A DNA stretch of 64,000 nt, taken from assembly GCA_029931975.1 (NCBI GenBank), contig JAOZQY010000002.1, positions 27,799 through 91,798 on the forward strand, given 5' to 3'. Below, in pieces: positions 14,395 through 64,000 of the stretch. How positions within the stretch are numbered: position 1 is the first letter of the stretch; each line of letters opens with the position of its first letter. Source of the DNA: Bacteroidales bacterium. GTDB lineage: Bacteria; Bacteroidota; Bacteroidia; Bacteroidales; GCA-2748055. The translations under genes and the position numbers were made by a program. The notes below the pieces were generated by a model, which was not told where the DNA came from, ran no database searches, and saw nothing but the letters and a program-made list of their open reading frames with translations.

Positions 14395-14410
14395 AATTCT
14401 AACTTTGAGA

Positions 14411-14418
14411 CAAAAGTA
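14411..14418 (-). promoter_or_regulatory. Bacteroidota-type -7 promoter box (TAnnTTTG)
   Basis: The minus strand reads TACTTTTG, 17 nt upstream of the rlmD start (14394). Confidence 0.35.
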
Positions 14419-14584
14419 TTACTCCTGCATCACTTCTGCAATGATCTTTTCCACATCTGCTGTTGCAGCCCGAGAGTCAACCTTGCAAGGGTTCCAATTA
14501 GAATTACAGAAAGCATAGGTTTTATTTTTTTTCCAGATATGCGTTTGTACTGGCTATTTATTCAATTGAGTCACCGAATTATTC

Positions 14585-14592
14585 TATTTTTG
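14585..14592 (+). promoter_or_regulatory. Bacteroidota-type -7 promoter box (TAnnTTTG)
   Basis: TATTTTTG lies 9 nt upstream of the ABC-F ATG (14601), implying a very short leader. Confidence 0.35.
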
Positions 14593-14600
14593 CCGGCAGA

Positions 14601-16601: not shown

Positions 16602-16615
16602 TTAATTTTAGGAAC

Positions 16616-48603: not shown

Positions 48604-49265
48604 TTGTGGCTATTTGACTGAATCAGTTGCTCAAATCGGTTAATAAACTTGTGTATTGTATCGAAATGTCCTGCCTTCAATCTTCGGTTTACAGCAGGCT
48701 GTGAAATTCCCAGAAGCTTACTGATTTCCATCTGGTTCTTCCCGGTCAGGTTCAAAAACATTGCCTCTGCCTGTTCATCTGACCAGTCATGAATAAGTAT
48801 ATCCATAAAACTACAGGTCAGAGTGAACTCATCGTTCAGTTCCTTAAAGGACGATATGATGGAAATTCGCTGGTTTCGTTTCATTTCCCCGATACCTTCT
48901 GAAGCTTTCCGGAAGGCTGTTCCGTCCGATTCCCTCAAATGTTCCTGACCAAACTCCACGGGCCCGATTGCTTCACATACTCTGAGTTCTAAACGCTCCG
49001 TAAGCTCTTTGTAGGACAGGAAGCGGAAGGCACTGAAAAGCATTATGAGCGATCGCATGGAGTGCCCGGGAGAAGCAGAAAGTGCAAGAAACTCATCCAT
49101 CCTGATGATCTCGTACTTGAGCCTGGCTTCTTCAGGGACCAGTCGGTTCACAGCCTGGAATGAGGCCCTGATAATGTCAGGAATCTTACTGAACTGTTCA
49201 TCCGAGATCCTTGCACCAGGGGCAAGTTCTCCTGCAATAACAGCATAATGTGCCTTATTTATCAT
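48600..49265 (-). CDS. SatD-like protein with C-terminal sigma-70 region-4-type HTH
   Basis: 221-aa ORF. Its layout matches my recollection of the SatD family (YAVIAGE...; MDEFLAL; DGTAFRKASEGI; C-terminal EISKLLGISQPAVNRRLK). The stop overlaps the GH2 start by 4 nt (ATGA). Confidence 0.5.
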   Translation of the reverse strand: MINKAHYAVIAGELAPGARISDEQFSKIPDIIRASFQAVNRLVPEEARLKYEIIRMDEFLALSASPGHSMRSLIMLFSAFRFLSYKELTERLELRVCEAIGPVEFGQEHLRESDGTAFRKASEGIGEMKRNQRISIISSFKELNDEFTLTCSFMDILIHDWSDEQAEAMFLNLTGKNQMEISKLLGISQPAVNRRLKAGHFDTIHKFINRFEQLIQSNSHK

Positions 49266-49530: not shown

Positions 49531-49568
49531 ACCAGACATGAAGAATGATATACCTAAACGCGAAGAGG

Positions 49569-50774
49569 ATGAAACAAATATTTGGCCTTATACTTATATC
49601 TGTACTGCTTTGCGATGGAACGGCTCAGGACCCTACCAGTTGGAGAGGCCCCACCCGGGATGGAATCTACCCGGAAACAGGCTTGTTGAAGCAGTGGCCG
49701 GCCGGTGGCCCGCAGATGCTCTGGGCCTATGAAGATCTTGGACAGGGACACTCCTCTGCCATTGTCGATCAGGGCTTTGTATATACAACAGGTATGATCA
49801 ATGATATGGGTTATCTTTTTAAATTCGATTTGGAAGGAAAGCTGGTATACAAAAAGGAATATGGTCCTGAATTCACTGAAAGTTTCTATGGTACCAGGGG
49901 AACACCTACCATTGTGGGTGATAAGATTTACCTCTTGAGCGGCACCGGGAAATTGCATTGTATCTATAATGAGTCGGGCGATATACTCTGGACCAAGGAT
50001 CTGTTTAAGGATTTTGATGGCAAGATTATCCGATGGGGAATGAATGAAACTCCTGTGATCGATGGAGATATTATCTACATTACCCCGGGTGGTAAAAAGT
50101 TTAATATTGTTGCACTGAACCGTCATTCGGGCGATCTGATCTGGAGTTCCCCGGGGATGGGAGAACTGACAGCTTATTCGACCCCCCTGTTGTTTGTACA
50201 TAATGGCAGGAAGATGCTGGCTACCCATTTTGAATCGCACCTGGTGGGTTTTGATGCCACCACAGGTGAAATGCTCTGGAACCAGCACCAGCCCAACGAG
50301 TGGTCCGTTCATCCCAATACACCCATCTATCACCAGGGAGGATTATTCTATCTGAGTGGATACGGACAGGGTGGAGGCATGCTGGAAATTGCGCCTGATG
50401 GCAACTCGGTCAACATAAAATGGACCCATAAGCTTATGGATAGTCGTATGGGCGGTGCCGTTCTGGTGGATGGATACATCTATGGATCCGGCGATAGCCG
50501 GGTGTGGACCTGTTTTGACTGGGAAACCGGAGAAGAGATGTACACTTCTAAGGAAATTGGTTTTGGCGTTTTGATTGCTGCGGATGGAATGCTCTACTGT
50601 TACAGTCAAAAGGGCGAGTTGGCCCTGGTAAAGCCTGATCCTTCAGCGTTTACCGTGATCAGCAAAACCAAGGTGGCTCTTGGATCAGAGCAGCACTGGG
50701 CACATCCGGTCATTTATGACGGTGTCCTCTATGTCAGACATGGCAAAGCGCTGATCGCTTATAAAGTAAAGTAG
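49569..50774 (+). CDS. secreted PQQ-like (BamB-like) beta-propeller repeat protein
   Basis: Signal peptide MKQIFGLILISVLLCDGTAQ, the N-terminal motif WRGPTRDGIYPETGLLKQWPAGGPQMLW, and repeated propeller-blade patterns to the end (WAHPVIYDGVLYVRHGKALIAYKV). An alternative start is at 49545. Confidence 0.8.
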   Translation: MKQIFGLILISVLLCDGTAQDPTSWRGPTRDGIYPETGLLKQWPAGGPQMLWAYEDLGQGHSSAIVDQGFVYTTGMINDMGYLFKFDLEGKLVYKKEYGPEFTESFYGTRGTPTIVGDKIYLLSGTGKLHCIYNESGDILWTKDLFKDFDGKIIRWGMNETPVIDGDIIYITPGGKKFNIVALNRHSGDLIWSSPGMGELTAYSTPLLFVHNGRKMLATHFESHLVGFDATTGEMLWNQHQPNEWSVHPNTPIYHQGGLFYLSGYGQGGGMLEIAPDGNSVNIKWTHKLMDSRMGGAVLVDGYIYGSGDSRVWTCFDWETGEEMYTSKEIGFGVLIAADGMLYCYSQKGELALVKPDPSAFTVISKTKVALGSEQHWAHPVIYDGVLYVRHGKALIAYKVK

Positions 50775-50813
50775 CGTCTCCACCCGGCGGTTTGTATTCA
50801 AAAACTTTAATTG

Positions 50814-51439
50814 ATGAAACATAGCTGTTTATCATTGCTTTTTATGATCCTGCTGACAGGAACAGGCCTGCAGGCTCAGGACGGACAATGGCGTGGACCG
50901 CAGAGGGATGGTAAATATCCTGATACAGGATTGCTGAAAAGCTGGCCCGAAGGGGGACCGGAACTTCTTTTGAGAAAAGATGGGCTGGGCAATGGATATT
51001 CTTCGCCCCTGGTTGTGGATGAGAAGATCTATATTATGGGCGGACTGGGAACGGTTGTCTGCATGGATACCGGTTCGGGAGAGATTCTCTGGCAGAGGAA
51101 TACCCACCAGGAATTTGAGGGTGAATTTCATCGCTGGGGCATGACAGAATCCCTGTTACTGACCGATAATGCAGTGATATCCACTCCAATCGATCACAAT
51201 GGATCAAAGTTAATTCTGATCACCTCCAGCGAGAACCTGATGGGTGTGGATCCTGAGTGCGGGGAGGTATACTGGAAGGTAGATCTCCTGAAGTATCTTG
51301 GCGAAAGAGGTCATCGGATCAATACCAATACACCCTGGAAAGCAGGTCGGGACCCTACTGGGCCCATATGACCATTTATAAAAAGAAATTATTTGTGAGG
51401 CATGGGGAAGTTCTTTACATCTTCGAAATAGGGGAATAG
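50814..51439 (+). pseudogene. decayed paralogue of the preceding beta-propeller gene
   Basis: It has the same signal and N-motif (WRGPQRDGKYPDTGLLKSWPEGGPELLL). The body is about half length with blades missing. The conserved C-terminus (WAHMTIYKKKLFVRHGEVLYIFEI) is in a different frame (ORF 51257-51439). Confidence 0.6.
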
Positions 51440-51483
51440 GGAAATAGTTAATAGTTAGTGGCTTGAGATTGAACAGGATAAAT

Positions 51484-52890
51484 ATGGTGACCATATTGCT
51501 GGTACTGGCGGGAGTGATCTCCCTGGGCTGGTGGCTGGCCACGGACCCGGTGAGTGATTTTGTCACTACCCAGCCCGGCCTTGACAATCGTGGTGAAGGC
51601 GGAGTGGTGGCCGATATCGATATCGGGGCCGTTGGAGAGACCCTGGCCAGCCTGGAGACGGAACTTACAGAAACCTGGCCCAGGTTTCGGGGCGAGCATT
51701 TCGATAACATCAGCTCTTCCACGATTCCCCTGATAGATAAGTTTCCTGAAGAGGGACCTGATATAAAGTGGTCGGTGTCCCTGGGTGAAGGACATGCCGG
51801 TGCCGCGATCTACAAGGGAGTGGTTTACGTATTGGATTATGACGAGGAGCAGCGGGCCGATCTCTTAAGGGCTTATGCCCTGGAGAGCGGTGAGAAGCTG
51901 TGGGTGCGTGGCTATAAGATCAACCTGAAGCGGAACCACGGCATGTCGCGCACAGTACCGGCGGTCACCGAAGAGCATATCCTGACCATTGGTCCCCGCA
52001 GTCACGTGATGTGTGTGAATCGTACCGACGGGACCTTTAACTGGGGATTGAATGTGGAGAAGGAGTACGGGTCAGAAATACCACTCTGGTATACCGGTCA
52101 GTGCCCCTTGATTCATGATGGCAAAGCGATTATTGCTGCCTGTGGCACTGCCCTGATGGTGGCCCTGGATATGGAAACCGGAGAGGTGCTCTGGGAAACT
52201 CCCAATCCACATGCCTGGCTCATGTCGCACTCCTCGGTGATGCCCTTTAAGTTTGGGGGAAGGATGATGTATGTGTACAGTGCCTATGGGGGTGTTTGCG
52301 GGGTGGCAGCAGATGGTCCCGATGCAGGAGCAATCCTCTGGGAAAGCACAGCCTGGAACCACCAGGTGATTGCCCCATCGCCGGTCTGTATGCCCGATGG
52401 TAAGATTTACCTTACTGCCGGCTATGGGGCCGGAGCCATGGTGCTACAGTTATCCGCTTCCGGTGGAAGTTACAGTGTTGAGGTACTGAATGAGTATACA
52501 CCTAAAGAGGGACTTGCCTGTGAACAGCAGACGCCGGTGGAGTTTAAGGGACACCTGCTGGGAATTCTTCCCAAGGATGCGGGTCCACTCCGTAACCAGC
52601 TGGTTTGCGTTCATCCCGATAATTTTAACCAGGTAGTGTGGTCTAGCGGACAGGACAAGCGTTTTGGACTGGGGCCCTATATGATTGCCGATAATAAACT
52701 CTTTATTCTTAGTGATGATGCTACACTCACCATTGCCCGGCCGGGTATCAGGGAGTACATTGAACTGGATAGTTACAGGGTGCTGGAGGGACACGATGCA
52801 TGGGGACCTCTGGCCATTGCAGACGGGTACTTGGTGATGCGCGATTCCAAAACAATGGTCTGTCTCGATATAGCTGCAGACCGAAAGTAA
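51484..52890 (+). CDS. membrane-anchored PQQ-like beta-propeller repeat protein
   Basis: N-terminal TM helix (VTILLVLAGVISLGWWLA), then WPRFRGEHFDN... and propeller repeats. The track ORF starts at TTG 51463; the first in-frame ATG is at 51484. Confidence 0.8.
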   Translation: MVTILLVLAGVISLGWWLATDPVSDFVTTQPGLDNRGEGGVVADIDIGAVGETLASLETELTETWPRFRGEHFDNISSSTIPLIDKFPEEGPDIKWSVSLGEGHAGAAIYKGVVYVLDYDEEQRADLLRAYALESGEKLWVRGYKINLKRNHGMSRTVPAVTEEHILTIGPRSHVMCVNRTDGTFNWGLNVEKEYGSEIPLWYTGQCPLIHDGKAIIAACGTALMVALDMETGEVLWETPNPHAWLMSHSSVMPFKFGGRMMYVYSAYGGVCGVAADGPDAGAILWESTAWNHQVIAPSPVCMPDGKIYLTAGYGAGAMVLQLSASGGSYSVEVLNEYTPKEGLACEQQTPVEFKGHLLGILPKDAGPLRNQLVCVHPDNFNQVVWSSGQDKRFGLGPYMIADNKLFILSDDATLTIARPGIREYIELDSYRVLEGHDAWGPLAIADGYLVMRDSKTMVCLDIAADRK

Positions 52891-52909: not shown

Positions 52910-53884
52910 ATGAAAAAGCGAAGTTTGACAATCGTGGTGCTGGTGATCATAGTGATTATCCTGGGAGTTATTATTGTGGATTTTTTGGGTAACCGTCCCG
53001 ATCGCAGGGGGGAGAATCCCTATGTGTTGGAGGTGAAGCAATACAGGGAAGTGGACCCTGAACTGATATCCCACAGAGAGATCCGGAATTTTTCTCTGGG
53101 ATTGATGATTGCAAGCGATATGAGTTATTACAATCAGACTCTCTATATTTCGGGGAATTCAACACTGGCAGTAATCTCCCTGAATGGATCACAATCCACC
53201 CTGCACGAGATTCCACCCGGCGCCACCAGCCTGGAGGTGGATGATGAAAATATTTTTGTGGGTTTTGGCAGCCATGTGGCCAAATATAATCATGAAGGAG
53301 AGCTTTTGCAGCAGTGGGCTGATCTGGGGGAGCGTACCGTGATTACCAACCTGGCCATAAAAGGAGATAAGATTTTCGTAGCAGATGCAGGTAACAGGCG
53401 CATTGTGATCTTCAACAGGGAAGGTGAATTGTTGGGCCAGTTTGAAGGGAAGGTCGAATCGGATGATGCACATGGATTTATTGTACCCAGTGCTAATTTC
53501 GATCTGGCAGTAAACTGTTTTGGCGAGTTATGGGTGGTCAATCCGGGCAAACATGCCCTGGAAAACTATAGCGACGATGGCCGTTTGCGTGGTTTCTGGG
53601 AGAGACGTTCCTTCGAAATAGACGGTTTCCTGGGCTGTTGCAACCCGGCCAGGATCACCACCATGGCCGATGGATCCTTTGTAACGTGTGAGAAGGGGAT
53701 GGTACGGATCAAGATTTACGATCAGTCGGGAAAACTTAAGAGCGTGGTGGCTCCTCCCGATCTTTTCAATGGAGAAGAAGGGAAGGCTCTGGAAGTATGC
53801 GCCGATGAGAACGATGTGATCTATGCATTGGATTTTGAGAAAGATATGATCAGGGTTTTTGAACCCATAGCAAAGGAACAATGA
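52910..53884 (+). CDS. membrane-anchored NHL-repeat beta-propeller protein
   Basis: N-terminal TM helix (LTIVVLVIIVIILGVIIV) and NHL repeats (e.g. FVADAGNRRIVIFNREGELLGQF; VRIKIYDQSGKL). An unusual CCNP motif is present (GFLGCCNPARI). Confidence 0.8.
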   Translation: MKKRSLTIVVLVIIVIILGVIIVDFLGNRPDRRGENPYVLEVKQYREVDPELISHREIRNFSLGLMIASDMSYYNQTLYISGNSTLAVISLNGSQSTLHEIPPGATSLEVDDENIFVGFGSHVAKYNHEGELLQQWADLGERTVITNLAIKGDKIFVADAGNRRIVIFNREGELLGQFEGKVESDDAHGFIVPSANFDLAVNCFGELWVVNPGKHALENYSDDGRLRGFWERRSFEIDGFLGCCNPARITTMADGSFVTCEKGMVRIKIYDQSGKLKSVVAPPDLFNGEEGKALEVCADENDVIYALDFEKDMIRVFEPIAKEQ

Positions 53885-54078
53885 ACAGGCGGAATTTTAT
53901 AGATAAAACAGGCCGGGGATTTCTTCTCGGGGCGATCGCACTGCTTAGCGGGGTGCTGGTAGTACGTCGGCAAGTGGTTCAGGATGCTTCCTGTACAGCT
54001 AACTTCCAGTGTAAGAACTGCGGGAAACTGTCTGATTGTCAGCTTTCTGAGGCTGAAACAGAACGAACAGATGGATAA
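53881..54078 (+). CDS. 65-aa Tat-motif / hydrophobic-anchor microprotein with a Cx5Cx2Cx5C cluster
   Basis: MNRRNFIDKTGRGFLLGAIALLSGVLVV...SCTANFQCKNCGKLSDC. The start overlaps the NHL gene stop (ATGA) and the end overlaps the next start by 8 nt, which supports translation. Confidence 0.5.
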   Translation: MNRRNFIDKTGRGFLLGAIALLSGVLVVRRQVVQDASCTANFQCKNCGKLSDCQLSEAETERTDG

Positions 54079-54661
54079 ACAGAATAAGAGCAAGGATAAG
54101 GGTGTCAAAAGAAGAGACTTCATCAATACGGGTGTAAGACTTGCCCTTGGTGTGTCTGTGGTGGGGACCGCTGCTTTCACCCTGAAGCGCTCATCCACGG
54201 GAAAGGATTATGTCTGGCAGATCGATCCATTCAAATGTACACAGTGCGGACGTTGTGCTACCGAGTGTGTTAAGGCAGAATCGGCAGTAAAATGTGTACA
54301 TGCCTATGCCCTGTGTGGTTACTGCGATCTTTGCGGTGGCTATTTCAAGCCGGGGGCCAAGCTGGAGACCGGTGCGGAGAATCAGCTCTGTCCGACCGGT
54401 GCTATCCAGCGAAAATTTATTGAGGAACCCTATTTTGAATATGTCATCGACGAGGCGCTCTGTATTGGTTGTGCTAAATGCGTAAAGGGATGTTCAGCCT
54501 TTGGAAACGGTTCCCTGCACCTTCAGATCAGGCATGATCTCTGTCTTAACTGCAACCAGTGCTCCATCGCCTCGGTTTGTCCCTCCGATGCCATCAGTCG
54601 TGTTCCGGCCGATGAACCCTATAAAATTAAAGGTGATTTCATCATTGAGAAGGAAGTTTGA
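54071..54661 (+). CDS. Tat-exported poly-[4Fe-4S] ferredoxin (NapG/NosG/MauM-like)
   Basis: Tat motif KRRDFINTGVRLALGVSVVG. Four Cys-cluster motifs are present: CTQCGRCATEC, CGYCDLCGG...LCPTGAI, CIGCAKCVKGC and CLNCNQCSIASVCP. Confidence 0.8.
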   Translation: MDKQNKSKDKGVKRRDFINTGVRLALGVSVVGTAAFTLKRSSTGKDYVWQIDPFKCTQCGRCATECVKAESAVKCVHAYALCGYCDLCGGYFKPGAKLETGAENQLCPTGAIQRKFIEEPYFEYVIDEALCIGCAKCVKGCSAFGNGSLHLQIRHDLCLNCNQCSIASVCPSDAISRVPADEPYKIKGDFIIEKEV

Positions 54662-54662
54662 T

Positions 54663-55952
54663 ATGATAAAATGGATACCCCGCATTGTACTGATTCTAAT
54701 CCTGTTGACATTGCTTACCGGTAGTTTCCTGCATGCACAGCAACGTTTCCCTAAGCCTGAGTTTGATACCGGTTATGTGCAGCCCGATCCCAGCACGCCC
54801 GAACCCAGAGCCATGGCCATGGAGTATTTTGATGTGTTGGTTCTGCTGGTAGTGCTTTCCCTGGCGTCCTGGCTGGCCATTAAAAAGCGTTCGCGCCGTG
54901 GTCTGCTCTGGCTCTCTGTTTTCTCGCTGATCTATTTTGGGTTCTATCGCGATGGCTGCATCTGCTCCGTCGGAGCCATTCAGAATGTGGCACTCTCCAT
55001 TTTCGATCCGGGATATGCCATCTCCATAACAGCCCTGCTCTTTTTTGTCCTTCCGCTACTCTTTGCACTCTTTTTCGGGCGCGTCTTTTGTGCTTCGGCA
55101 TGTCCCCTTGGAGCCATCCAGGATCTGCTGGTGATTCACCCCATCTCCATACCCAGCTGGATTCGAAAAACCCTGGGTTTTATTCCGCTTATTTACCTTG
55201 CGCTTTCGGTACTCTTTGCTGCCACGGGCAGTGACTTTATCATCTGTCGCTACGATCCCTTTATAGGGATCTTCCGGATGGACGGTCCCTTCCTGATGAT
55301 TTTCCTGGGTATGACCTTTCTCTTCCTGGGCATGTTTTATGCCAGGCCCTACTGCCGGATCTTCTGTCCCTACGGTGTTCTGCTGGGATGGATGTCAAAA
55401 TTTTCGAAATGGCACATGAGCATCACCCCCTCGGAGTGCATCAAGTGCAAACTGTGCGAGGACTCCTGTCCATTCGACGCCATTGAGGTGCCCATTGAAC
55501 AGAGTTACAGGGACCCGGAGGTCTCCCGAAAGAACCTGAGGAGATTTATTTTCTATATCGCTATGATTCCCCTGCTTACGCTGGCAGGTGGATGGACAGG
55601 GGCAAAATCGAATGTTTTTTTGAGCCGTGTTCATCCCGATGTCTACCTGGCCGAGCTGATGATCAGTAATCCCGAGTTAAGAGAAGATGAGGAGAACCTG
55701 GATATTCAGGCCTTCCTGGAAGCGGGGCTTACCTTTGAGCAGTTGATTGAGAAGGCCGCTGTGATACGCGAGAAATTCAGGAAAGGGGGCATGGCTATGG
55801 GTGGATTCATCGGTCTGGCACTGGGTATCACCCTGATGAACCAAGTGGTGTTCCGGCGCAGGGAAGATTACAAGCCCCATAAGGGAGATTGTTTCTCCTG
55901 TGGAAGGTGTATGGACTATTGTCCTGTGGGAAAAATAGTGAATAGTGCCTAG
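54663..55952 (+). CDS. integral-membrane polyferredoxin (NapH/NosH/MauN-like)
   Basis: Multiple TM helices, two CX3CP motifs (FCASACPLGAIQD; YCRIFCPYGVLL), and two ferredoxin motifs (CIKCKLCEDSCP; CFSCGRCMDYCP). The start is 1 nt after the preceding stop. Confidence 0.8.
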   Translation: MIKWIPRIVLILILLTLLTGSFLHAQQRFPKPEFDTGYVQPDPSTPEPRAMAMEYFDVLVLLVVLSLASWLAIKKRSRRGLLWLSVFSLIYFGFYRDGCICSVGAIQNVALSIFDPGYAISITALLFFVLPLLFALFFGRVFCASACPLGAIQDLLVIHPISIPSWIRKTLGFIPLIYLALSVLFAATGSDFIICRYDPFIGIFRMDGPFLMIFLGMTFLFLGMFYARPYCRIFCPYGVLLGWMSKFSKWHMSITPSECIKCKLCEDSCPFDAIEVPIEQSYRDPEVSRKNLRRFIFYIAMIPLLTLAGGWTGAKSNVFLSRVHPDVYLAELMISNPELREDEENLDIQAFLEAGLTFEQLIEKAAVIREKFRKGGMAMGGFIGLALGITLMNQVVFRRREDYKPHKGDCFSCGRCMDYCPVGKIVNSA

Positions 55953-57825
55953 GGTAAAAGTTGATGGAAAAGAAATGAAAATAACAGGTAATATGGATCA
56001 GGATCAGAAAATTGTACTGACCCGCAGGGTTGTACTGATCTCCGGAACATTCAGCGCAGTGGTGGCCCTGCTGCTGATACTGAATTTCTGGCACATGAAA
56101 CACAATGAGCCGCTGGAGAGTAAAACCATCGAGGCACTGGTGGAACGACTGGCCAGCGAGCCGGACAATGAGGAGCTAAAAGAGGAAATCCGCAGCTTTG
56201 ACCTGCTGGCACGCAAGGCCTATTTTACGAGCCAATGGCAGGTGAAGAGCGGTACCTGGCTACTGCTTATTGGTGGTATCGTGCTGGCTGTTTCCCTGAA
56301 AATCTATACCGATTTAAGGAGCCGGATTGAGGAACCCGAAAAGGTGACTGAAGACTTGCTGAGGGCAAGGGCCAATTCACAGTACTGGTTGATGATGGCA
56401 GGAGGATTGATCCTCGGATTGTCACTGGTGGCGGGTTTCCTGACCAACGATTACCTGGAGGCTTACCAGGAGATGGGTGTGGCGACTGAGTCCGAACAGC
56501 AGGAGGGTGATGTGGAAATGATCGAATTGTTCACCGGGCAACCGGATACAACAGGTGATGCAGGTCTTGAGGTGAGTGAAACGAAAAACAGTGAAGTTGT
56601 CAGTGAGACAGGTACAGGCCAAGCTCCTGTCGAAGAGTCGCTTGCTACTGCGACAGAGATTCGTTTTAATCGCGAAGATTTTAAAAAGAACCAGGCTACC
56701 TTCCGTGGTTACATGGGACAGGGTGTTTCCTATCATAAGAATATCCCGGAGAATTGGAACGGTTCCACCGGCGAGGGCATCAAATGGAAAGTAGCTTCTT
56801 CCAGGCCGGGATACAGCTCACCGGTGATCTGGGGAGATAAGCTTTTTATCTCGGGCGGAGATACGCAGGCCAGGGTGGTGGCATGCTACAACAGGCATAA
56901 CGGACAACTACTCTGGGAGAAGGAGGTATCCGGGATACAGGGATCTCCGGCAGCGCCGCCCCGGGTCACCGACGATACGGGACTGGCGGCTCCAACCATG
57001 TCGGTTGATGGTAACAGGGTATATGCCATATTTGCCACTGGCGACGTGGTGGCCTTTGATATGAATGGCAAACAGGTGTGGGGTCGCAATCTTGGAGTTC
57101 CCAATAACCATTATGGGCACTCATCATCGCTCCAGGTCTGGGACAACAAGGTGATTGTTCAGTACGATACCAATTCGTCGGGAAGAATGCTGGCCCTTAA
57201 TACATCAACGGGTGAGACCATCTGGGATGTGGAGCGACCGGTGCACATTTCATGGGCATCTCCGGTTCTGATCGATGTGGAAGGAAAGATCCAGGTGGTT
57301 ACCACGGCAGATCCCTATGTATCGGGACATGATCTGGAAACTGGTGCTGAAATCTGGAAGGTGGAGGCCATGATGGGTGAAGTTGGTGCCTCTGTTGCCT
57401 ATGGGAACGGACTGGTATTTGCCACCAACGAGTATGCCCGGCTGGTAGCTATGGAGCCTAAAGCGGGTGCGGAGTTTACCTGGGAGGACGATGAGTACCT
57501 TGCCGAGGCATCCAGTCCGGTTGCATACAATGGCCTGCTCTATACAGCCACCAGTTACGGGGTGCTGGTCTGTTACGATGCTCTTACAGGAGAGAAGAAA
57601 TTTGAAAAAGAATTTAACAATGGCTTCTATTCTTCACCCATGATAGCAGATGGAAAGCTCTATATCGTCGATATGCGCGGTGTGACTCATATCCTGAAGG
57701 CCGATGCCAGCGGAACCATTATTGCCGAGCCGGAGATGGGTGAAGGGGGGTATGCCGTACCTGCTTTTGCAGATGGATTAATTTACCTGAGGGGGGAATC
57801 GAACTTGTATTGTATTGGGAAATAG
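55945..57825 (+). CDS. three-TM-anchored PQQ-like beta-propeller repeat protein with acidic linker
   Basis: About three N-terminal TM helices and an acidic Glu/Thr-rich linker. Then FRGYMGQGVSYHKNIPENW...IKWKV and propeller repeats to the end. The GTG start at 55945 overlaps the upstream gene by 8 nt; an alternative ATG is at 55975. Confidence 0.8.
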   Translation: MPRVKVDGKEMKITGNMDQDQKIVLTRRVVLISGTFSAVVALLLILNFWHMKHNEPLESKTIEALVERLASEPDNEELKEEIRSFDLLARKAYFTSQWQVKSGTWLLLIGGIVLAVSLKIYTDLRSRIEEPEKVTEDLLRARANSQYWLMMAGGLILGLSLVAGFLTNDYLEAYQEMGVATESEQQEGDVEMIELFTGQPDTTGDAGLEVSETKNSEVVSETGTGQAPVEESLATATEIRFNREDFKKNQATFRGYMGQGVSYHKNIPENWNGSTGEGIKWKVASSRPGYSSPVIWGDKLFISGGDTQARVVACYNRHNGQLLWEKEVSGIQGSPAAPPRVTDDTGLAAPTMSVDGNRVYAIFATGDVVAFDMNGKQVWGRNLGVPNNHYGHSSSLQVWDNKVIVQYDTNSSGRMLALNTSTGETIWDVERPVHISWASPVLIDVEGKIQVVTTADPYVSGHDLETGAEIWKVEAMMGEVGASVAYGNGLVFATNEYARLVAMEPKAGAEFTWEDDEYLAEASSPVAYNGLLYTATSYGVLVCYDALTGEKKFEKEFNNGFYSSPMIADGKLYIVDMRGVTHILKADASGTIIAEPEMGEGGYAVPAFADGLIYLRGESNLYCIGK

Positions 57826-60167
57826 TGGAAGTTGAGATAAAAGATATAAATGCGATAGTGCAGGAGCTGGGAGTAGCACAGCATGCTGTGATTCCAGTAC
57901 TGCAGGCCATCCAGGAGAAGTACAACTATCTGCCTGAGGAGGCGTTGCGCAGGGTATGTGAGATTTCCGAAATCACACCGGCTCAGATTGTGGGTGTGGC
58001 CAGCTTCTACTCGCAATTCAGGTTTACACCGGCCGGTCAGCATATAATAAAGGTGTGTGTGGGAACCGCCTGTCATGTTAAAGGAGCCGGACTGGTATAT
58101 GACGCCATGAAACGGGAACTGGAACTGGGTGAGGGTAAGGATACCACTGCTTCGGGGAAGTATACCATTGAGAAGGTTAACTGCCTGGGATGTTGCACCC
58201 TGGCACCGGTGGTTCAGATCGACCATGTTACCTACGGACATGTAAACACCTCCCAGGTGGCCAAAGTTCTGACCGATTTTGAGACTCTGAAGGGCGACTC
58301 GGGAAAGAAAAAATACAGATTGGCTGATGGCAGTGAGGTGAAAGGTGAGATACGGATCGGACTGGGCTCCTGTTGTGTGGCAAGTGGAAGTGATGAGATC
58401 AGGGATGCGGTAAAGGATACCATCGACCGGAAGGGACTAAATGTAAAACTGAAGCATGTGGGCTGTGTGGGCATGTGTCATCAGGTTCCACTGGTGGAGA
58501 TTGTTCCGGCCAACGGGGAGTCCACCCTTTATTCAAAGGTAAAGGCGGCCGATGTGGATCAGATCGTACAAGAGCACTTTCAACCCGAAGGGTTCCTGAA
58601 AAGAATCTCCCATAAACTGCTGAATATGGCCGATACTATCAGGGACGATAGTCGCTGGATGGGAGTGGACCGCTATTCTCTGGATGTGCGGGAGAAACAT
58701 GTATCCCTCTTCCTGGATAAGCAGATTCCCATGGCCACCGAGTTTCGTGGAATCATCAATCCCATCGATGTGGAGGAGTATAAGAGTCGGAATGGATTTA
58801 AAGGACTCTCCCGGGTACTGAAAGAGATGAAACCTGCCGAGGTGGTCGGGGAGATTATCGATAGTGGCATACGTGGCCGCGGTGGTGGTGGCTTTCCTTC
58901 CGGAATCAAATGGAAGATGGTGGCCCGGCAGCCTGGTCCCACAAAATACGTAATCTGTAATGGCGATGAGGGCGACCCGGGTGCCTTTATGGACCGGATG
59001 CTTCTTGAGTCTTACCCCTACCGGATTATTGAAGGGATGGTTGCAGCAGGCTATGCCATTGGTGCCTCTGAAGGCATCCTGTATATCAGGGCAGAATATC
59101 CCCTGGCGGTGACACGTGTATTGCAGGCACTGGATATCTGCAGGGAGCAGGGTTATCTTGGAAAAAATATTATGGGTAGCGGTTTTGACTTCGATCTAAG
59201 TGTTTACCAGGGTGCAGGAGCCTTTGTCTGTGGGGAGGAGACCGCATTGATGGAATCCATTGAGGGGAAACGTGGTTTCCCCAGGATCAGGCCACCCTAT
59301 CCTGCAGTGAAAGGCCTGTGGGGAGCTCCCACACTGATAAACAATACAGAGACCTTTGCCCAGATTTCCTATATAATGAAGAACGGTGCCTCCGCCTTTA
59401 ACAGGGTAGGAACCAAGTTGTCGCGGGGAACCAAGGTTTTTGCACTGGCCGGAAAGGTGGCCCGTGGCGGACTCATCGAGGTGCCCATGGGAATGACCAT
59501 TCGCGAGGTGGTGGAAGAGATCGGAGGCGGTGTGGCCAATGGCCGGAAATTTAAAGCGGTACAGATCGGCGGACCTTCCGGAGGTTGTGTGCCGTCGTGG
59601 AAGTCAGATACACCTATTGATTTTGAATCGCTTAAGGAGGTTGGAGCCATGATGGGCAGCGGGGGACTGGTGGTGCTGGATGATACGGACTGCATGGTGG
59701 ATATTGCCCGCTACTTTCTCACCTTCACCCAGAACGAATCCTGTGGCAAATGCAGCTTCGGACGCATTGGCACCAAGCGGATGCTGGAGATCCTGGAAAA
59801 GCTTACCACCGGGAAAGGGACCGAAAAAGATCTGGAGAACCTGGAGGAGCTGGCGCATTGGACCAAGAAGGGAAGCCTGTGTGCCTTATGCGGAACGGCA
59901 CCCAATCCCATTCTCTCCACCCTGGAATATTTCAGGGACGAGTATGAGGCCCATATCAGGGGGGAGTGTCCGGCCGGAAAGTGCAAGCACCTGATCAAGT
60001 ATGAAATTACGGATGATTGTATCGGCTGCACCCTTTGCGCTCAGGACTGCCCGGTGGATGCTATCGCCTTCAAACCTCATGAGAAGCATGAGGTGGACAA
60101 TGAATTGTGTATTCAATGTGATGGTTGCAGGCAGGTATGTCCCGAAAATGCGGTAATAGTTAGATAG
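57825..60167 (+). CDS. fused NuoE-like [2Fe-2S] / second thioredoxin-like [2Fe-2S] / NuoF-like FMN-NADH flavoprotein / 2x[4Fe-4S] ferredoxin (HydB/HndC-type)
   Basis: NuoE Cys pattern (CVGTAC...CLGCC) and a second 2Fe-2S domain (GSCCVASG...GCVGMCHQ). NuoF motifs are GIRGRGGGGFPSGIKW, CNGDEGDPGAFMDR, GAGAFVCGEETAL and ESCGKC. The C-terminus carries CIGCTLCAQDCP and CIQCDGCRQVCP. GTG 57825 overlaps the upstream TAG; the track gives TTG 57810. Confidence 0.9.
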   Translation: MEVEIKDINAIVQELGVAQHAVIPVLQAIQEKYNYLPEEALRRVCEISEITPAQIVGVASFYSQFRFTPAGQHIIKVCVGTACHVKGAGLVYDAMKRELELGEGKDTTASGKYTIEKVNCLGCCTLAPVVQIDHVTYGHVNTSQVAKVLTDFETLKGDSGKKKYRLADGSEVKGEIRIGLGSCCVASGSDEIRDAVKDTIDRKGLNVKLKHVGCVGMCHQVPLVEIVPANGESTLYSKVKAADVDQIVQEHFQPEGFLKRISHKLLNMADTIRDDSRWMGVDRYSLDVREKHVSLFLDKQIPMATEFRGIINPIDVEEYKSRNGFKGLSRVLKEMKPAEVVGEIIDSGIRGRGGGGFPSGIKWKMVARQPGPTKYVICNGDEGDPGAFMDRMLLESYPYRIIEGMVAAGYAIGASEGILYIRAEYPLAVTRVLQALDICREQGYLGKNIMGSGFDFDLSVYQGAGAFVCGEETALMESIEGKRGFPRIRPPYPAVKGLWGAPTLINNTETFAQISYIMKNGASAFNRVGTKLSRGTKVFALAGKVARGGLIEVPMGMTIREVVEEIGGGVANGRKFKAVQIGGPSGGCVPSWKSDTPIDFESLKEVGAMMGSGGLVVLDDTDCMVDIARYFLTFTQNESCGKCSFGRIGTKRMLEILEKLTTGKGTEKDLENLEELAHWTKKGSLCALCGTAPNPILSTLEYFRDEYEAHIRGECPAGKCKHLIKYEITDDCIGCTLCAQDCPVDAIAFKPHEKHEVDNELCIQCDGCRQVCPENAVIVR

Positions 60168-60174
60168 GGAAATA

Positions 60175-61740
60175 GTGGTTAAAATAAAGATCGATAACAG
60201 GGAAATAGTGGCAGCCGAAGGCAGCGTGCTGATGGAGGTGATCAGGGACATGGGCATCGAGGTGCCTTCCATGTGTTACCTGAAGGAAGTCGAAAGTTTC
60301 ACCTCCTGCATGCTATGTGTAGTGAAGGATCGAAAGAGCGGGAAAATCCTGCCTTCCTGTTCGCTTGAGGCAGTGGAGGGCATGGATATTATCTCCATGG
60401 ACGACGAGGTGAGGGAGGCACGAAAAAGTGCCCTTGAACTGCTGCTGAGCGAACATGTGGGCGATTGCGAGGCCCCCTGCCAGCTTACCTGTCCGGCCCA
60501 TATGGATATTCCCCTGATGAACCGTCTGCTGGCTGAAGGAAAGTTCCATGAGGCTCTGGTGGTGGTGAAAAAAGATATTGCTCTTCCATCGGTTCTTGGC
60601 AGAATTTGTCCGGCCCCCTGCGAGGGAGCCTGTCGGCGAAAGTCCATCGATCAGGCGGTCTCCATCTGTCTGCTAAAACGCTTTGCAGGGGATCATGACC
60701 TGGAGGCTGATATGTCATGGATGCCCATTCCGGCAAGCAGTAGTGGAAAGAAGGTAAGTGTGATTGGTGCTGGACCGGCCGGACTGGCTGCAGCGTACCA
60801 GCTGGAACTGATGGGGCATCACTGCCTTGTCATCGACCGTAATAAAATTGCGGGTGGCAGCCTTAGAAAAGAGGTCTCCCCGGAGGAACTTCCTCCGGTG
60901 GTTCTAAAGCGGGAAATTGAGCATATTGCAGCACTTGGTGTGGAATTCAGGCTTGGATCGGAGGTGGATGCCAAACAGTTCCTGGAACTTCAGAAGAGCA
61001 GCGATGCCATTGTGGTGGCCACAGGAAAAGGAGAAAGCGGAGTTGGAGCCTGGGGATTGCCCATGCATCCCAAGGGTGTGGAAGTCCATGGGAAGACATA
61101 CCGGGTGGGCGACACAGCCGTTTTTGTGGTGGGTAGCGCCCTGAAACCGTCCAAACTGGCCATCCGGGCATTGGGACAGGGCAAGGAAGCTGCATTCAGT
61201 GTGGATCAGTTTCTGAAAGGGCAAGCGGTTACAGGGGAACCCAGGCTTTTTAATTCCCGGTTTGGCAAACTGGATCGGGCCGAGTATGCTGAATATCTAA
61301 AAGAATCGAAGGAAGGGGAACGCCTGGAACCGGCACAAAAAGGTGAGGGCCTGACTGCGGAACAGGTAATGGAGGAGGCTGCACGATGCCTGCATTGCGA
61401 TTGCCGCGATTTGAAAAACTGCAGGCTCAGGCTCTATTCAGATGCCTATGGTGCCGATCAGAAGCGATTCAAATCTGAAGTTCGTCAGCTCTGCACCAAA
61501 CAGGTGCAACACAAGGAGGTGATTTACGAGCCTTCCAAGTGTATCAAGTGCGGGATCTGTGTCAGGCTCACCGAAAAATATAAAGAGGATTTTGGTTTCA
61601 CCTTTATTGGCAGGGGCTTTGATGTGGTAGTTGGAGTGCCTTTTAATGAGAGCACGGCCGAGGGTCTTAAGAAAGTGGCCCTGGAGGTAGCCGATGCATG
61701 TCCCACCGGTGCCATCAGTCGAAAAATTGAAAGCTTGTAA
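60175..61740 (+). CDS. NuoG/HydA-type [2Fe-2S] domain fused to a GltD-like Fe-S/FAD domain and C-terminal NuoG-like [4Fe-4S] motifs
   Basis: The N-terminus KIKIDNREIVAAEGSVLMEV...PSMCY...CMLCVV is Fer2-like. A GltD N-domain follows (CEAPCQLTCPAHMDIP...GRICPAPCEGACRR), then an FAD GxGxxG (VIGAGPAGLAAAYQL). The C-terminus carries CLHCDCRDLKNC and CIKCGICV...CPTGAI. It uses a GTG start. Confidence 0.8.
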   Translation: MVKIKIDNREIVAAEGSVLMEVIRDMGIEVPSMCYLKEVESFTSCMLCVVKDRKSGKILPSCSLEAVEGMDIISMDDEVREARKSALELLLSEHVGDCEAPCQLTCPAHMDIPLMNRLLAEGKFHEALVVVKKDIALPSVLGRICPAPCEGACRRKSIDQAVSICLLKRFAGDHDLEADMSWMPIPASSSGKKVSVIGAGPAGLAAAYQLELMGHHCLVIDRNKIAGGSLRKEVSPEELPPVVLKREIEHIAALGVEFRLGSEVDAKQFLELQKSSDAIVVATGKGESGVGAWGLPMHPKGVEVHGKTYRVGDTAVFVVGSALKPSKLAIRALGQGKEAAFSVDQFLKGQAVTGEPRLFNSRFGKLDRAEYAEYLKESKEGERLEPAQKGEGLTAEQVMEEAARCLHCDCRDLKNCRLRLYSDAYGADQKRFKSEVRQLCTKQVQHKEVIYEPSKCIKCGICVRLTEKYKEDFGFTFIGRGFDVVVGVPFNESTAEGLKKVALEVADACPTGAISRKIESL

Positions 61741-61742
61741 CT

Positions 61743-62876
61743 ATGTCCATAAAAAAAACATTCATCCGGCTTGTACTGGCCTCTGTGATTATTCCAGGAG
61801 CGTGGACCAGTACCCGGGCCCAGTCAGGCAGCTGCTGGGGAAACTTCAGGGGCGATGCGAAACTAAGCGGGGTGAGCCAGTCGAAGCTTCCCTCAAAGCC
61901 TACTATGTTATGGAATTTCAATGCCCAGGATGGAATCAAGGCCTCACCGGTAGTGTGTGACGGAGTGCTTGTGGTGGGCACCCTGGAAGGAATCCTCTAT
62001 GGAATTAATACCGATGGAACCCTGAAGTGGAAGATCGATACCGAATACAGCATTGAGGCCCCGGCCATGATTGTGGACGGGGTGGTCTATGTGGGGAACC
62101 TGGATGGTACGCTCTATGCCGTCGATCTGCAAAGCGGTGCCGTCCGATGGACCTACCAGACCGAGAATATGATTATGGGATCACCTTCCTTTTATAGGAA
62201 AGGAACGCAAAAAGTGATCCTGGTGGGCAGCTATGACTATTACCTGCACGGGATTGATCCGGCTACAGGGAAGGGGCTTTGGAAGTACGAGACCGATAAC
62301 TTCATTAATGGTTCCTGTGCGCTCTATAGCGGAATGGCAGTTTTCGGAGGATGCGACGGCTTTATCCATATGGTGGATGTGTTGACGGGGAAGGTTAAAA
62401 GCAGTATGTCAATTTCCACCTATGTGGCCAGTTCGGCCTGTATAGACCGCGACTATGCCTATGTCGGGGATTACGATGGACGGTTCCTGGCTGTGGACCT
62501 TTTGGGTGAAAAGGTAAAATGGGTATTTGAGAACAAGGAGGCCAACCTGCCCTTTATCGGATCGCCGGCCATTTACGGGGATCATGTATTTATCGGAAAC
62601 CGTGATAAATTCGTTTATTGTCTGAACAAAAAGGATGGAAAGCTGGTCTGGAAGTATAACACCGGCGGGAGGGTCGATGCCTCGCCTGTAGTTGTGGGAA
62701 ACAGCTTACTGGTTGCCAGTATGCGGGGCGACCTGTTTCTCCTGAACCGGAAGAACGGGAAGCTGTTGTGGACCTATGAACTGGGGACCGCTGTTTATGC
62801 CAATGGGGCCGTTTTGGATAACAGGATTTATATAGCAGGCGATGACGGCCGGGTTTATTGTTTTGGAAAGAAGTAG
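61743..62876 (+). CDS. secreted PQQ-like (BamB-like) beta-propeller repeat protein
   Basis: Signal peptide (LVLASVIIPGAWTSTRAQ), WGNFRGDAKLSG, and very regular blade repeats (GxLYAVDxxxGxxxWxY). The start is 2 nt after the preceding stop. Confidence 0.85.
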   Translation: MSIKKTFIRLVLASVIIPGAWTSTRAQSGSCWGNFRGDAKLSGVSQSKLPSKPTMLWNFNAQDGIKASPVVCDGVLVVGTLEGILYGINTDGTLKWKIDTEYSIEAPAMIVDGVVYVGNLDGTLYAVDLQSGAVRWTYQTENMIMGSPSFYRKGTQKVILVGSYDYYLHGIDPATGKGLWKYETDNFINGSCALYSGMAVFGGCDGFIHMVDVLTGKVKSSMSISTYVASSACIDRDYAYVGDYDGRFLAVDLLGEKVKWVFENKEANLPFIGSPAIYGDHVFIGNRDKFVYCLNKKDGKLVWKYNTGGRVDASPVVVGNSLLVASMRGDLFLLNRKNGKLLWTYELGTAVYANGAVLDNRIYIAGDDGRVYCFGKK

Positions 62877-62897
62877 AAAGGATATGGAATGAATATA

Positions 62898-64000
62898 ATG
62901 CACATCATCCCCGGTTCCGGGGGGAGTTTTTATTGCGGGAACTGTCTGCGCGACTCCAAATACGTTGAGGCACTACGAAAATCTGATCATAAGGTGGTGA
63001 AGCTGCCCATGTACCTGCCTCTGTTTGCCGATGAGCACGATCTGAGCAGGGAGGTTCCGGTCTTTTACGGGGCCATCAGTATTTACCTGAAGCAGCTCTT
63101 TCCCATCTTCAGAAAAGCCCCGGGATGGGTCGACCGTGCCCTTAACTCCAGGCCCATGCTGAAACTGGCTTCCAAATTTGCGGGTTCTACCCGTGCCAGG
63201 GGACTGGAAGAAATGACCGTTTCTATGTTGCTGGGAGAAGAGGGGCAGCAGCAGGATGAACTGCAGAAGATGGTCGACTGGATCGTGGAGAATTGTGCTC
63301 CCGATGTGATCCACCTATCCAATGCCCTCTTGCTTGGACTGGCTCAGCAACTGGGTGAACGCATGCATGTTCCCGTGATCTGTTCATTGCAGGACGAAGA
63401 TGTGTGGGTCGATGTAATGAAGCCTTCAGCAGCAGAGAGTGTATGGAAACTGATGTCCAACAAGGCAGACCATGTGGCAAAATTTATTTCTGTGAGCGAT
63501 TTCTATGCCGGGGTGATGAAGAAGAAAATGTCACTGCCGGCAGAGAAGGTGGACTCCGTACATGTCGGGGTGGACCCGGCCGACTATAACTTCAAAGCGG
63601 TATCGGAGAAGAAGCGAAACATAGGCTTTGTATCCCGCATGTGTTTTGAAAACGGCCTGGATATCCTGGTGGATGCCTTTTTCCTTTTGAAGCAGAAGGA
63701 GGAATATGCTGATGTGAACCTGGTACTCACTGGAGGATCCACCGGCGATGATAAAAAATATCTGTCTGATATACGGGCTCAGATCAGGGAACATGGCTTA
63801 CAGGATCAGGTAGAGTTTCATGACGATTTTGAGGAGCAGGGGCTCAGGGACTATTTCGAAAAGGTAGCTGTGGTATCAGTGCCGGTCCGCAATGGAGAGG
63901 CATTTGGCATTTACCTGCTGGAGTGCATGGCCTCGGGAATTCCCGTGGTACAGCCTGCTCTGGGTGCGTTCCCCGAGATTATTGAATTCGCCGGAGGAGG
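62898..64000 (+). CDS. glycosyltransferase family 4 (GT-B), 3' end outside window
   Basis: This ORF is not in the track because it has no stop in the window. I translated it by eye: MHIIPGSGGSFYCGNCLRD...VHVGVDPADY...GFVSRMCFENGLDILVDAF...EAFGIYLLECMASGIPVV, which has the GT4 EX7E-type region. It begins 21 nt after the last propeller gene. Confidence 0.8.
   Translation, partial: MHIIPGSGGSFYCGNCLRDSKYVEALRKSDHKVVKLPMYLPLFADEHDLSREVPVFYGAISIYLKQLFPIFRKAPGWVDRALNSRPMLKLASKFAGSTRARGLEEMTVSMLLGEEGQQQDELQKMVDWIVENCAPDVIHLSNALLLGLAQQLGERMHVPVICSLQDEDVWVDVMKPSAAESVWKLMSNKADHVAKFISVSDFYAGVMKKKMSLPAEKVDSVHVGVDPADYNFKAVSEKKRNIGFVSRMCFENGLDILVDAFFLLKQKEEYADVNLVLTGGSTGDDKKYLSDIRAQIREHGLQDQVEFHDDFEEQGLRDYFEKVAVVSVPVRNGEAFGIYLLECMASGIPVVQPALGAFPEIIEFAGG

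Follow-up and report, generated by a model that had tools for sequence, protein, structure and literature searches.

The Bfu-type enzymes characterised so far are soluble and balance NADH, ferredoxin and one soluble third substrate, while membrane-bound versions, termed Mbh-Bfu and Nuo-Bfu, have only been predicted (Schut et al. 2022, PMC9304861). The closest described systems to the proteins treated here are the Nfn-Bfu/Stn enzymes, whose NuoE-, NuoF- and GltD-NuoG-like subunits are named StnA, StnB and StnC in the Sporomusa paper and NfnC, NfnB and NfnA (BfuC, BfuB and BfuA) in the Adams/Li papers. In NfnABC, the electron path runs from flavin adenine dinucleotide (FAD) through A7-A6-A3-A2-A1 to B1, flavin mononucleotide (FMN) and C1, with A4/A5 in the formate dehydrogenase (Fdh)-like domain forming a dead-end branch, and the C-terminal NuoG/Fdh-like domain of NfnA mediates tetramerisation and cradles BfuC (PMC11829005). 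A 64,000-nucleotide stretch of a Bacteroidales bacterium (GenBank assembly GCA_029931975.1, contig JAOZQY010000002.1, positions 27,799 to 91,798; hereafter the window) encodes two adjacent relatives of these subunits on the + strand, a BfuC-BfuB fusion of 780 aa (BfuCB, 57825-60167) and a short BfuA of 521 aa (60175-61740), inside a run of genes for NapG/NapH-like and exported beta-propeller proteins. Alignments mark the pair as a member of the Bfu family by ancestry, closest to Nfn-Bfu/Stn, electron bifurcation or confurcation itself being predicted only. The pair is reasonably likely to serve a NapGH-type transmembrane redox complex, not described before, as its cytoplasmic module for NADH (plus ferredoxin).

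Domain content of the flavoprotein pair

Both open reading frames (ORFs) lie where an earlier note, made from the sequence without database searches, had placed them. The 780-aa protein contains, in order, a NuoE-type [2Fe-2S] domain (C1), a thioredoxin-like [2Fe-2S] domain (B5), a NuoF core for FMN and NADH with B1 and the His/Cys site B2 (Zn), and a C-terminal 2x[4Fe-4S] domain (B3, B4). This fusion had been proposed in the earlier note and was confirmed by Pfam (2Fe-2S_thioredx in two stretches, 5e-50, including the NuoE domain at residues 9-152; Complex1_51K, 4e-42; SLBB; NADH_4Fe-4S, 2e-30; a C-terminal Fer4 dicluster) and by alignments with solved relatives. The proposed HydBC-like homology was likewise right, as the closest solved structures are B subunits of bifurcating Bfu enzymes, namely T. 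sibiricus NfnB (9n5u_B, 2e-207) and the NuoF-type subunit of Sporomusa ovata Stn (8oh5_B, 9e-206), followed by Caldicellulosiruptor NfnB (9bov_B) and then HydB of the bifurcating hydrogenases. The alignment with NfnB and the Stn NuoF-type subunit covers residues 170-778 from end to end, including the glycine-rich loop and the GDEGDPGAF and CGEETAL motifs. In a crude hydropathy test, neither protein of the pair has a hydrophobic or transmembrane segment, and BfuCB has no signal peptide.

Ligand conservation was assessed in 53 BfuCB orthologs from related loci, and the ligands of C1 (C78/C83/C120/C124), B5 (C183/C184/C214/C218) and B2 (H710/C715/C720 with C588/C623) as well as the eight C-terminal Cys of B3/B4 are each kept in 52-53 of them. 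The B2, B3/B4 and B5 sites all align with those of solved Bfu B subunits, and the His/Cys site B2 holds zinc in most solved structures. These are the sites that separate bifurcating Bfu cores from non-bifurcating NuoEF homologs, which lack B2, B3/B4 and B5 (Schut et al. 2022, PMC9304861), and BfuCB holds every one of them. BfuCB also keeps the C-terminal domain of the NuoF-type subunit that is the ferredoxin reduction site in Stn (PMC10482914). As judged from these ligands, the Bfu core of BfuCB is complete and under selection.

The B1 cluster, beside FMN, departs from the canonical form. At the third Cys position of the B1/N3 motif C-x2-C-x2-C, solved homologs carry Cys, whereas BfuCB has Gly646 (codon GGA, 59760-59762, + strand); a Cys at position 689 (codon 59889-59891, + strand), three residues past the fourth B1 ligand, appears to compensate for it, leaving a B1 with three canonical Cys plus the relocated C689. 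The combination G646 with C689 occurs in 22 of the 53 orthologs and C646 with G689 in the other 31, with zero exceptions. It looks like the relocation of one B1 ligand, in a clade at least 78% identical to the window protein, and the perfect covariation indicates that the cluster is maintained.

The 521-aa BfuA is of the StnC/NfnA type. It contains an N-terminal [2Fe-2S] domain, a His/Cys motif, a Fer4_20 domain with two [4Fe-4S] clusters and the Lys168 ligand position, an FAD Rossmann domain, and C-terminal CxxCxC...C and CxxCxxC...CP motifs (Pfam: Fer2_4, Fer4_20, FAD Rossmann and a Fer4_Nqo3-like C-terminus). Its closest solved structures, 9bov_A, 9n5u_A and 8oh5_C, are the large GltD/NuoG fusion subunits (9e-92 to 1e-78). 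An AlphaFold2 model (mean predicted local distance difference test score 69.8, with 80-95 across most of the flavin-domain region, residues 190-350) retrieved 9bov_A, 8oh5_C and 9n5v_A as the top Foldseek matches (E 1e-28 to 1e-30). The match to HydA is confined to the N-terminal [2Fe-2S]/His-cluster region, residues 1-99.

Conservation of BfuA was followed in 134 diverse representatives of 480-600 aa with 35-56% identity to the window protein, a family that comprises more than 130 clusters at 50% identity among the best 150 matches. Essentially invariant are the Fe-S ligands of the N-terminal part (C34, C45, C48, C62; H94, C98; C102, C106, C145, C149, C153) and of the C-terminal part (C405, C408, C410, C416; C456, C459, C462, C509), a set that suffices for one [2Fe-2S] and about four [4Fe-4S] clusters. 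The dinucleotide motif GxGxxG (G198, G200, G203) and G227-G228 are kept as well, and position 221 is acidic (D/E) in 130 of the 135 sequences. StnC has an unusual Lys ligand, K170, on its flavin-proximal cluster (PMC10482914), which aligns with K168 of BfuA; K168 is invariant in close orthologs, whereas a count over 135 sequences of the wider family gives 69 with K, 22 with E and 19 with H at this site. The short BfuA can be read as the wire of the NfnABC path stripped of the A4/A5 side branch.

NAD(P)H subdomain and gene linkage

The HMMER alignment of BfuA with 9bov_A is interrupted, with residues 1-289 matching 3-291 and residues 276-514 matching 426-671, so that about 135 residues of 9bov_A between 291 and 426, the second, NAD(P)H-binding Rossmann subdomain of the GltD/NfnL fold, have no counterpart. 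The deletion scar lies at about residues 288-293 (61036-61053, + strand), where relatives hold a block of ~135-150 aa. The spacing between G284 and G320 is 28-41 residues, with a maximum of 58, among the 135 sequences; therefore the 480-600 aa group has no room for the subdomain. In addition, the strand-helix pattern of a second Rossmann domain was not seen at residues 285-330 of the AlphaFold2 model, and the Foldseek alignments take ~690 columns for a 521-residue query, ~170 of them gaps. BfuA ends at the equivalent of residue 671 of the 1178 of 9bov_A, the Fdh/NuoG-like half being absent. The earlier note had described the second protein as Stn-like with a GltD-like FAD domain in place of an H-cluster; the Stn/NuoG-type homology and the absence of an H-cluster stand, while the GltD-like module is incomplete, the Fdh-like half is gone, and the protein also has a C-terminal NuoG-type cluster domain that this description left out.

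A graded series of relatives documents the loss. In direct alignment, a block of ~150 columns is present in four relatives of 660-710 aa (P0231, P0245, P0220 and P0240) and missing from the window BfuA and from the distant homologs P0250 and P0229, which include a Spirochaetales one. These longer relatives, ~40% identical, have a full Pyr_redox_2 domain, in which the second Rossmann motif is intact in P0245 (GGGNEALDAA) and P0240 (GGGNTAMDAA) and degenerate in P0231 (AAGSPG) and P0220 (GSGPGA). They reside in the same type of operon. P0231 lies between a gene for a protein like the 626-aa propeller, with a BfuCB fusion, and a GT4 glycosyltransferase gene (locus L085), P0245 is followed by a GT4 gene (L084), and the 709-aa P0240 belongs to a minimal operon (L086) with one propeller, an NHL protein, NapG, NapH, and separate NuoE-like and NuoF-like genes beside BfuA. 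Since relatives of the same operon type carry the domain either intact or decayed, the loss appears to have occurred inside the operon family, and by these alignments the NAD(P)H subdomain decayed first and was then deleted in most lineages.

Forms with and without the subdomain sharing one operon type suggest that the system does not need NADPH. As read from the alignments, the window BfuA cannot bind NADPH in the Stn/NfnABC way, and with the NAD(P)H subdomain and the Fdh-like domain both lost, the third-substrate site of the ancestral Nfn-Bfu/Stn enzyme is gone. The pair is almost certainly not an NADPH transhydrogenase. A Stn/NfnABC transhydrogenase identity was rejected for the absence of the subdomain, and the stand-alone NADH/NADPH/ferredoxin bifurcating enzyme considered in the earlier note is unsupported for the same reason.

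The genomic setting points to a different partner. A scan of one genome per species for homologs of the 521-aa protein gave 73 loci at 46-85% identity, all from uncultured Bacteroidota, and carriers of the family are common among uncultured anaerobic Bacteroidales from sediments, seeps, soils and digesters. Every locus that is long enough has the order propeller, propeller, NHL, NapG, NapH, propeller, BfuCB, BfuA, propeller, GT4, in more than 40 Bacteroidales loci from metagenome-assembled genomes (MAGs). A LolD-like ABC ATPase and an FtsX/MacB-type permease of ~1100 aa (1018-1132 aa) come next in most relatives (for example at 14044-18055 of L004); they are missing from seven loci and from the minimal operon, and the window ends before this position. 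The ABC transporter probably belongs to the system. A Spirochaetales MAG (L076) shares eleven genes in unchanged order, again with overlapping junctions; GT4 is missing, and the ABC/FtsX genes (12743-16791) stand directly after the last propeller. In six further loci (L074, L078, L079, L081, L082 and L083) the pair stands beside propeller genes, and contigs that reach far enough also show NapGH or ABC genes; L085 and L086 have the same operon type too. With linkage kept to this extent, the pair is probably tied functionally to NapGH and the propellers. The earlier note had viewed it as the electron-input module of the operon, which fits the NapG/NapH-like and propeller linkage in every long-enough Bacteroidales locus, and had named absence of NapH-like linkage in other genomes as evidence to the contrary; such linkage was looked for and is present in Bacteroidales, in the Spirochaetales MAG and in other distant relatives.

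Two fused forms of the short BfuA were also observed. In a MAG labelled Syntrophothermus, on a contig that looks Bacteroidales-like (L080, 1305-3908), P0182 is a short BfuA fused in frame to the downstream propeller via the propeller signal peptide, with GT4 next; the product would have a cytoplasmic part, cross the membrane once and continue outside, but this is a single case, which a read-through or a sequencing error may explain. In P0271 (951 aa; L079, 10001-12856; five cluster members), a URO-D-like domain (Pfam 1.7e-7) follows the short BfuA at the C-terminus; the operon around it contains NapGH, an NHL protein and propellers, one of which has collagen-like repeats. The URO-D-like domain may hint at a substrate class, tetrapyrrole or corrinoid.

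Neighbouring genes and the role of the pair

The pair is embedded in a compact + strand run of genes from 49545 to the window end, and the junctions around it are a 1-nt overlap, a 7-nt gap and a 2-nt gap. All genes described here are on the + strand unless noted. The cluster opens with an exported PQQ_2-type beta-propeller of 409 aa (49545-50774), followed by a truncated propeller gene of 186 aa (50811-51371). Compared with its orthologs of ~400 aa upstream of the 475-aa propeller, this second gene has internal gaps and lacks the C-terminal half, and it is probably a decayed copy or an assembly artefact. The membrane-anchored 475-aa propeller (51463-52890) is the best conserved extracytoplasmic part, with 39% of positions conserved at 90% or more against ~24% for the others, and L086, the minimal operon, has retained a propeller of this type. 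The numerous polar residues that never vary (in RNHGMSRT, GQCP, HSS, EQQT, KDAGP and FGLGP) make the 475-aa propeller a candidate catalytic subunit. A membrane-anchored NHL-repeat protein of 324 aa with an invariant GCCNP motif and Cys260 (52910-53884) comes next.

A previously unannotated ORF of 63 aa (53881-54072) overlaps both of its neighbours and is conserved in position in ~38 related loci. It encodes a small Cys4 protein with a Tat-like (twin-arginine) leader, MNRRNFI (RRxFI), one transmembrane segment and the motif C-x5-C-x2-C-x5-C-x-LPEA, for which no NCBIfam family matched; the leader resembles that of NapG, and L082 has a 63-aa gene at the same position. The NapG-like exported ferredoxin (54071-54661) has a conserved twin-arginine leader (RRDFI) and 16-17 Cys, and its true start is likely the ATG at 54071 in place of the mechanical ORF start at 53984, as the overlapping 63-aa ORF implies. 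The NapH-like polytopic membrane Fe-S protein of 429 aa (54663-55952) matches Fer4_5 twice and carries two CX3CP motifs, which are conserved, and two CxxCxxCxxxCP cluster motifs in K/R-rich loops, so placed that the [4Fe-4S] pair is probably cytoplasmic. Its matches to the NapH families are weak (NapH/MauN, 1e-9, under the curated cut-off; NCBIfam NapH scores of 38 and 35 bits against cut-offs of 213 and 234), and it has extra transmembrane segments.

Between NapH and the pair lies a membrane-anchored PQQ_2-type propeller of 626 aa with three N-terminal hydrophobic segments (55945-57825), and downstream of the pair come an exported propeller of 377 aa with a signal peptide and an invariant FGGCDG motif (61743-62876) and a GT4 glycosyltransferase cut by the window end (62889-64000). 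The GT4, ABC ATPase and FtsX permease hit generic NCBIfam families only (EPS GT4, LolD-like and ADOP/MacB-like). Upstream of the run, a divergent 221-aa protein on the - strand (48600-49265) without a Pfam or NCBIfam match shows by eye a C-terminal helix-turn-helix-like stretch (LLGISQPAVNRRLKAGHF) and may be the operon regulator; a GH2 glycosidase and a 7TMR-DISM histidine kinase lie upstream of it.

In Pfam and NCBIfam searches, the operon proteins gave no hydrogenase, Fdh, Mo/W, H-cluster or other recognisable cytoplasmic catalytic domain, in agreement with the earlier note, which had described the pair as lacking a cytoplasmic catalytic subunit. No hydrogenase or formate dehydrogenase partner is encoded in the operon or in related loci, and the annotated part of the window (43.8-64 kb), like the related loci, shows no genes for Nap or Nos proteins or cytochromes. 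The NapGH-like pair here is also accompanied by no FMN-binding domain, ApbE, NapAB/C or NosZ.

The topology of these proteins fits a membrane module, with flavoproteins devoid of transmembrane segments, a conserved RR leader on NapG, and propellers with signal peptides or anchors. In the proposed mechanism, NADH would react at the FMN of BfuCB and ferredoxin probably at B3/B4, because the conservation of B3/B4 is otherwise hard to explain. The BfuA cluster chain would connect the Bfu core to the probably cytoplasmic [4Fe-4S] pair of the NapH-like protein, the Tat-exported NapG-like ferredoxin and the small Cys4 protein would be the next carriers on the outer side, and an extracytoplasmic complex of beta-propeller and NHL proteins would be the endpoint. 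Direct docking on NapH has about an even chance, and ferredoxin-coupled confurcation could equally go either way. If BfuA does contact NapH, it more likely does so with the surface near its C-terminal cluster, which the absent Fdh-like domain leaves free, than with the flavin face; relatives with an intact NAD(P)H subdomain share the operon, so a contact that relies on the face exposed by the deletion is unlikely. A flow from NADH (plus reduced ferredoxin) to an outside acceptor is more likely than the reverse.

Several points weigh against this assignment. The physical contact between BfuA and NapH is inferred. In characterised systems NapGH counts as a quinol dehydrogenase, and a link through the quinone pool in place of direct wiring is therefore conceivable. 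The propellers and the NHL protein show no recognisable redox catalytic site; they gave only generic PQQ_2/BamB/NHL matches and weak ones to tetrathionate hydrolase and quinoprotein dehydrogenases, the 475-aa propeller profile found nothing in the PDB better than E 1e-4, and no identifiable counterpart was found for GCCNP, FGGCDG or the 475-aa propeller motifs. In BfuA itself, the FAD subdomain (residues 230-345) is much less conserved than the Fe-S parts, and the C-terminal GD motif is GS in the window protein; FAD occupancy and the role of FAD are uncertain on both counts, although the protein likely binds FAD. Every locus comes from a MAG or metagenome. Finally, P0133 (L075), the sole exception to the linkage among the longer distant-relative contigs checked, joins the short form to an additional, complete GltD-like module, and its contig of 7.8 kb carries neither NapGH nor propeller genes.

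The alternative that survives best, though unlikely, is that the pair is tied to the operon and not wired to NapH, reducing instead a diffusible carrier, either menaquinone at NapH or a small cytoplasmic substrate at an exposed FAD, with the NapGH-like proteins serving as an ordinary quinol dehydrogenase that feeds the periplasmic proteins. The conserved CX3CP motifs of the NapH-like protein and the quinone-reducing Nuo-Bfu complexes predicted by Schut et al. (PMC9304861) speak for it, and the flavin should become accessible once the NAD(P)H subdomain is gone; however, relatives that retain this subdomain in the same operon make an exposed flavin unnecessary, and the translational coupling of every gene points to a stoichiometric complex.

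A reversed flow is rather improbable. Here an extracytoplasmic oxidation by the propeller and NHL proteins would send electrons through NapG and NapH to BfuA, and the Bfu core would bifurcate them to NAD+ and ferredoxin, as known Bfu enzymes do with NADPH, H2 and formate. In its favour, Bfu enzymes can run in both directions and mostly take a mid-potential donor as third substrate (PMC9304861), the B3/B4 domain, with which ferredoxin interacts, shows strict conservation, and the L086 module retains its NADPH site like the bifurcating Nfn. Against it, none of the proteins can be recognised as a low-potential periplasmic enzyme that would plausibly act as donor, with hydrogenase, Fdh and Mo/W domains all absent, and the hosts, to go by the origin of their MAGs and the GH2 neighbour, seem to degrade polysaccharides anaerobically, a way of life in which electron sinks are more often what is needed. 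A self-sufficient soluble transhydrogenase of the Stn/NfnABC type (NADH + reduced ferredoxin + NADP+) whose place in the operon is incidental is highly implausible. The complete Bfu core, the conserved FAD Rossmann motif and the Nfn-Bfu/Stn subunits that come closest to both proteins among solved structures would agree with it, but the window BfuA and its 134 diverse relatives have lost the NAD(P)H Rossmann subdomain, and the NapGH/propeller linkage is kept across phyla with overlapping junctions.

Comparison with known systems

A full-text literature search found no description of this operon, which does not prove that none exists. In the survey of Schut et al. (PMC9304861), Bacteroidetes members fall in the 'Nfn' part of BfuB clade 53 and 17 clades are unassigned, and in its supplement 'Bacteroidetes' appears only in the FeFe-Bfu row and no relevant genera are named.

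The pair is like Nfn-Bfu/Stn (StnABC 8OH5; Caldicellulosiruptor NfnABC 9BOV; Thermococcus sibiricus NfnABC 9N5U) in sharing the core FMN, B1, B2/Zn, B3/B4, B5 and C1, and its BfuA is like StnC/NfnA in having the N-terminal [2Fe-2S] domain, the GltD/NfnL-like Fer4_20 domain with the Lys position, the FAD Rossmann domain and the NuoG-type cluster domain. Different from these enzymes, it has neither the NAD(P)H subdomain nor the Fdh-like half that holds A4/A5 (PMC11829005), BfuC is fused to BfuB (a separate gene in L086), one B1 Cys has moved, and the genes are embedded in a membrane/periplasmic operon and not in a three-gene cluster for a soluble enzyme. The layout of BfuA, without an Fdh-like domain, is also that of the PRK12814-type 'putative NADPH-dependent glutamate synthase small subunit' of ~660 aa (NF009454), its best NCBIfam match at 377 bits against a cut-off of 916; unlike that type, the window BfuA and most of its family are without the NAD(P)H Rossmann block of ~150 aa. 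From [FeFe]-hydrogenase HydABC it differs in the absence of an H-cluster domain from BfuA. Members of the BfuA family are labelled generically in the sources as '(2Fe-2S)-binding protein', 'FAD-dependent oxidoreductase' or 'glutamate synthase small chain', and despite such names of its relatives, Nfn, Stn and glutamate synthase small chain are all unsuitable annotations for the pair.

Like the predicted Mbh-Bfu and Nuo-Bfu complexes, the locus has BfuABC genes inside a membrane-complex operon, and BfuA has been proposed there to carry electrons between the core and other subunits. The partner is, in contrast, a NapH/NapG-type pair with exported propellers, an NHL protein and a MacB-type transporter; with neither a group-4 hydrogenase nor a complex I membrane arm in that place, the locus has no evident module for proton pumping. 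NapH-like proteins are modular transmembrane electron-transfer units, with propeller partners such as NirS, ExaA and NosZ and with flavinylated domains involved (Méheust et al. 2021, PMC8238504), and NuoF-like partners have been reported only for 31 MsrQ-like clusters (PMC8238504). The locus resembles NapGH, NosGH and NapH-like modules in its two Fer4_5 (CX3CP) and two [4Fe-4S] motifs, its Tat-exported partner ferredoxin and its propeller association; unlike NapGH/NosGH, it co-encodes a cytoplasmic NADH-oxidising Bfu module and has no flavinylated or FMN-binding domain. Such a module together with NapH-like systems is not reported in the literature searched.

Taken as a whole, the system may represent a transmembrane redox machine of a new kind. 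Tentatively, and with some doubt, it can be viewed as a multi-phylum class of membrane-spanning Bfu complex not described before, in which an NfnABC-derived confurcating NADH/ferredoxin module that lost its NADPH site by stages is hard-wired via NapH/NapG-like proteins to a propeller/NHL machine, often with a MacB-type transporter. If this is true, fermentative anaerobes would gain a way to discharge, or to take up, low-potential electrons outside the cytoplasm without recourse to quinones, cytochromes or flavinylated proteins, and NapH-like proteins would gain a defined cytoplasmic partner. The series of NAD(P)H subdomains from intact to decayed to deleted within one operon family offers a clean natural experiment on the re-purposing of a bifurcating enzyme. 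Compared with the soluble Bfu enzymes, the third substrate would be replaced by a NapGH-type transmembrane route, extending bifurcation or confurcation to extracytoplasmic chemistry.

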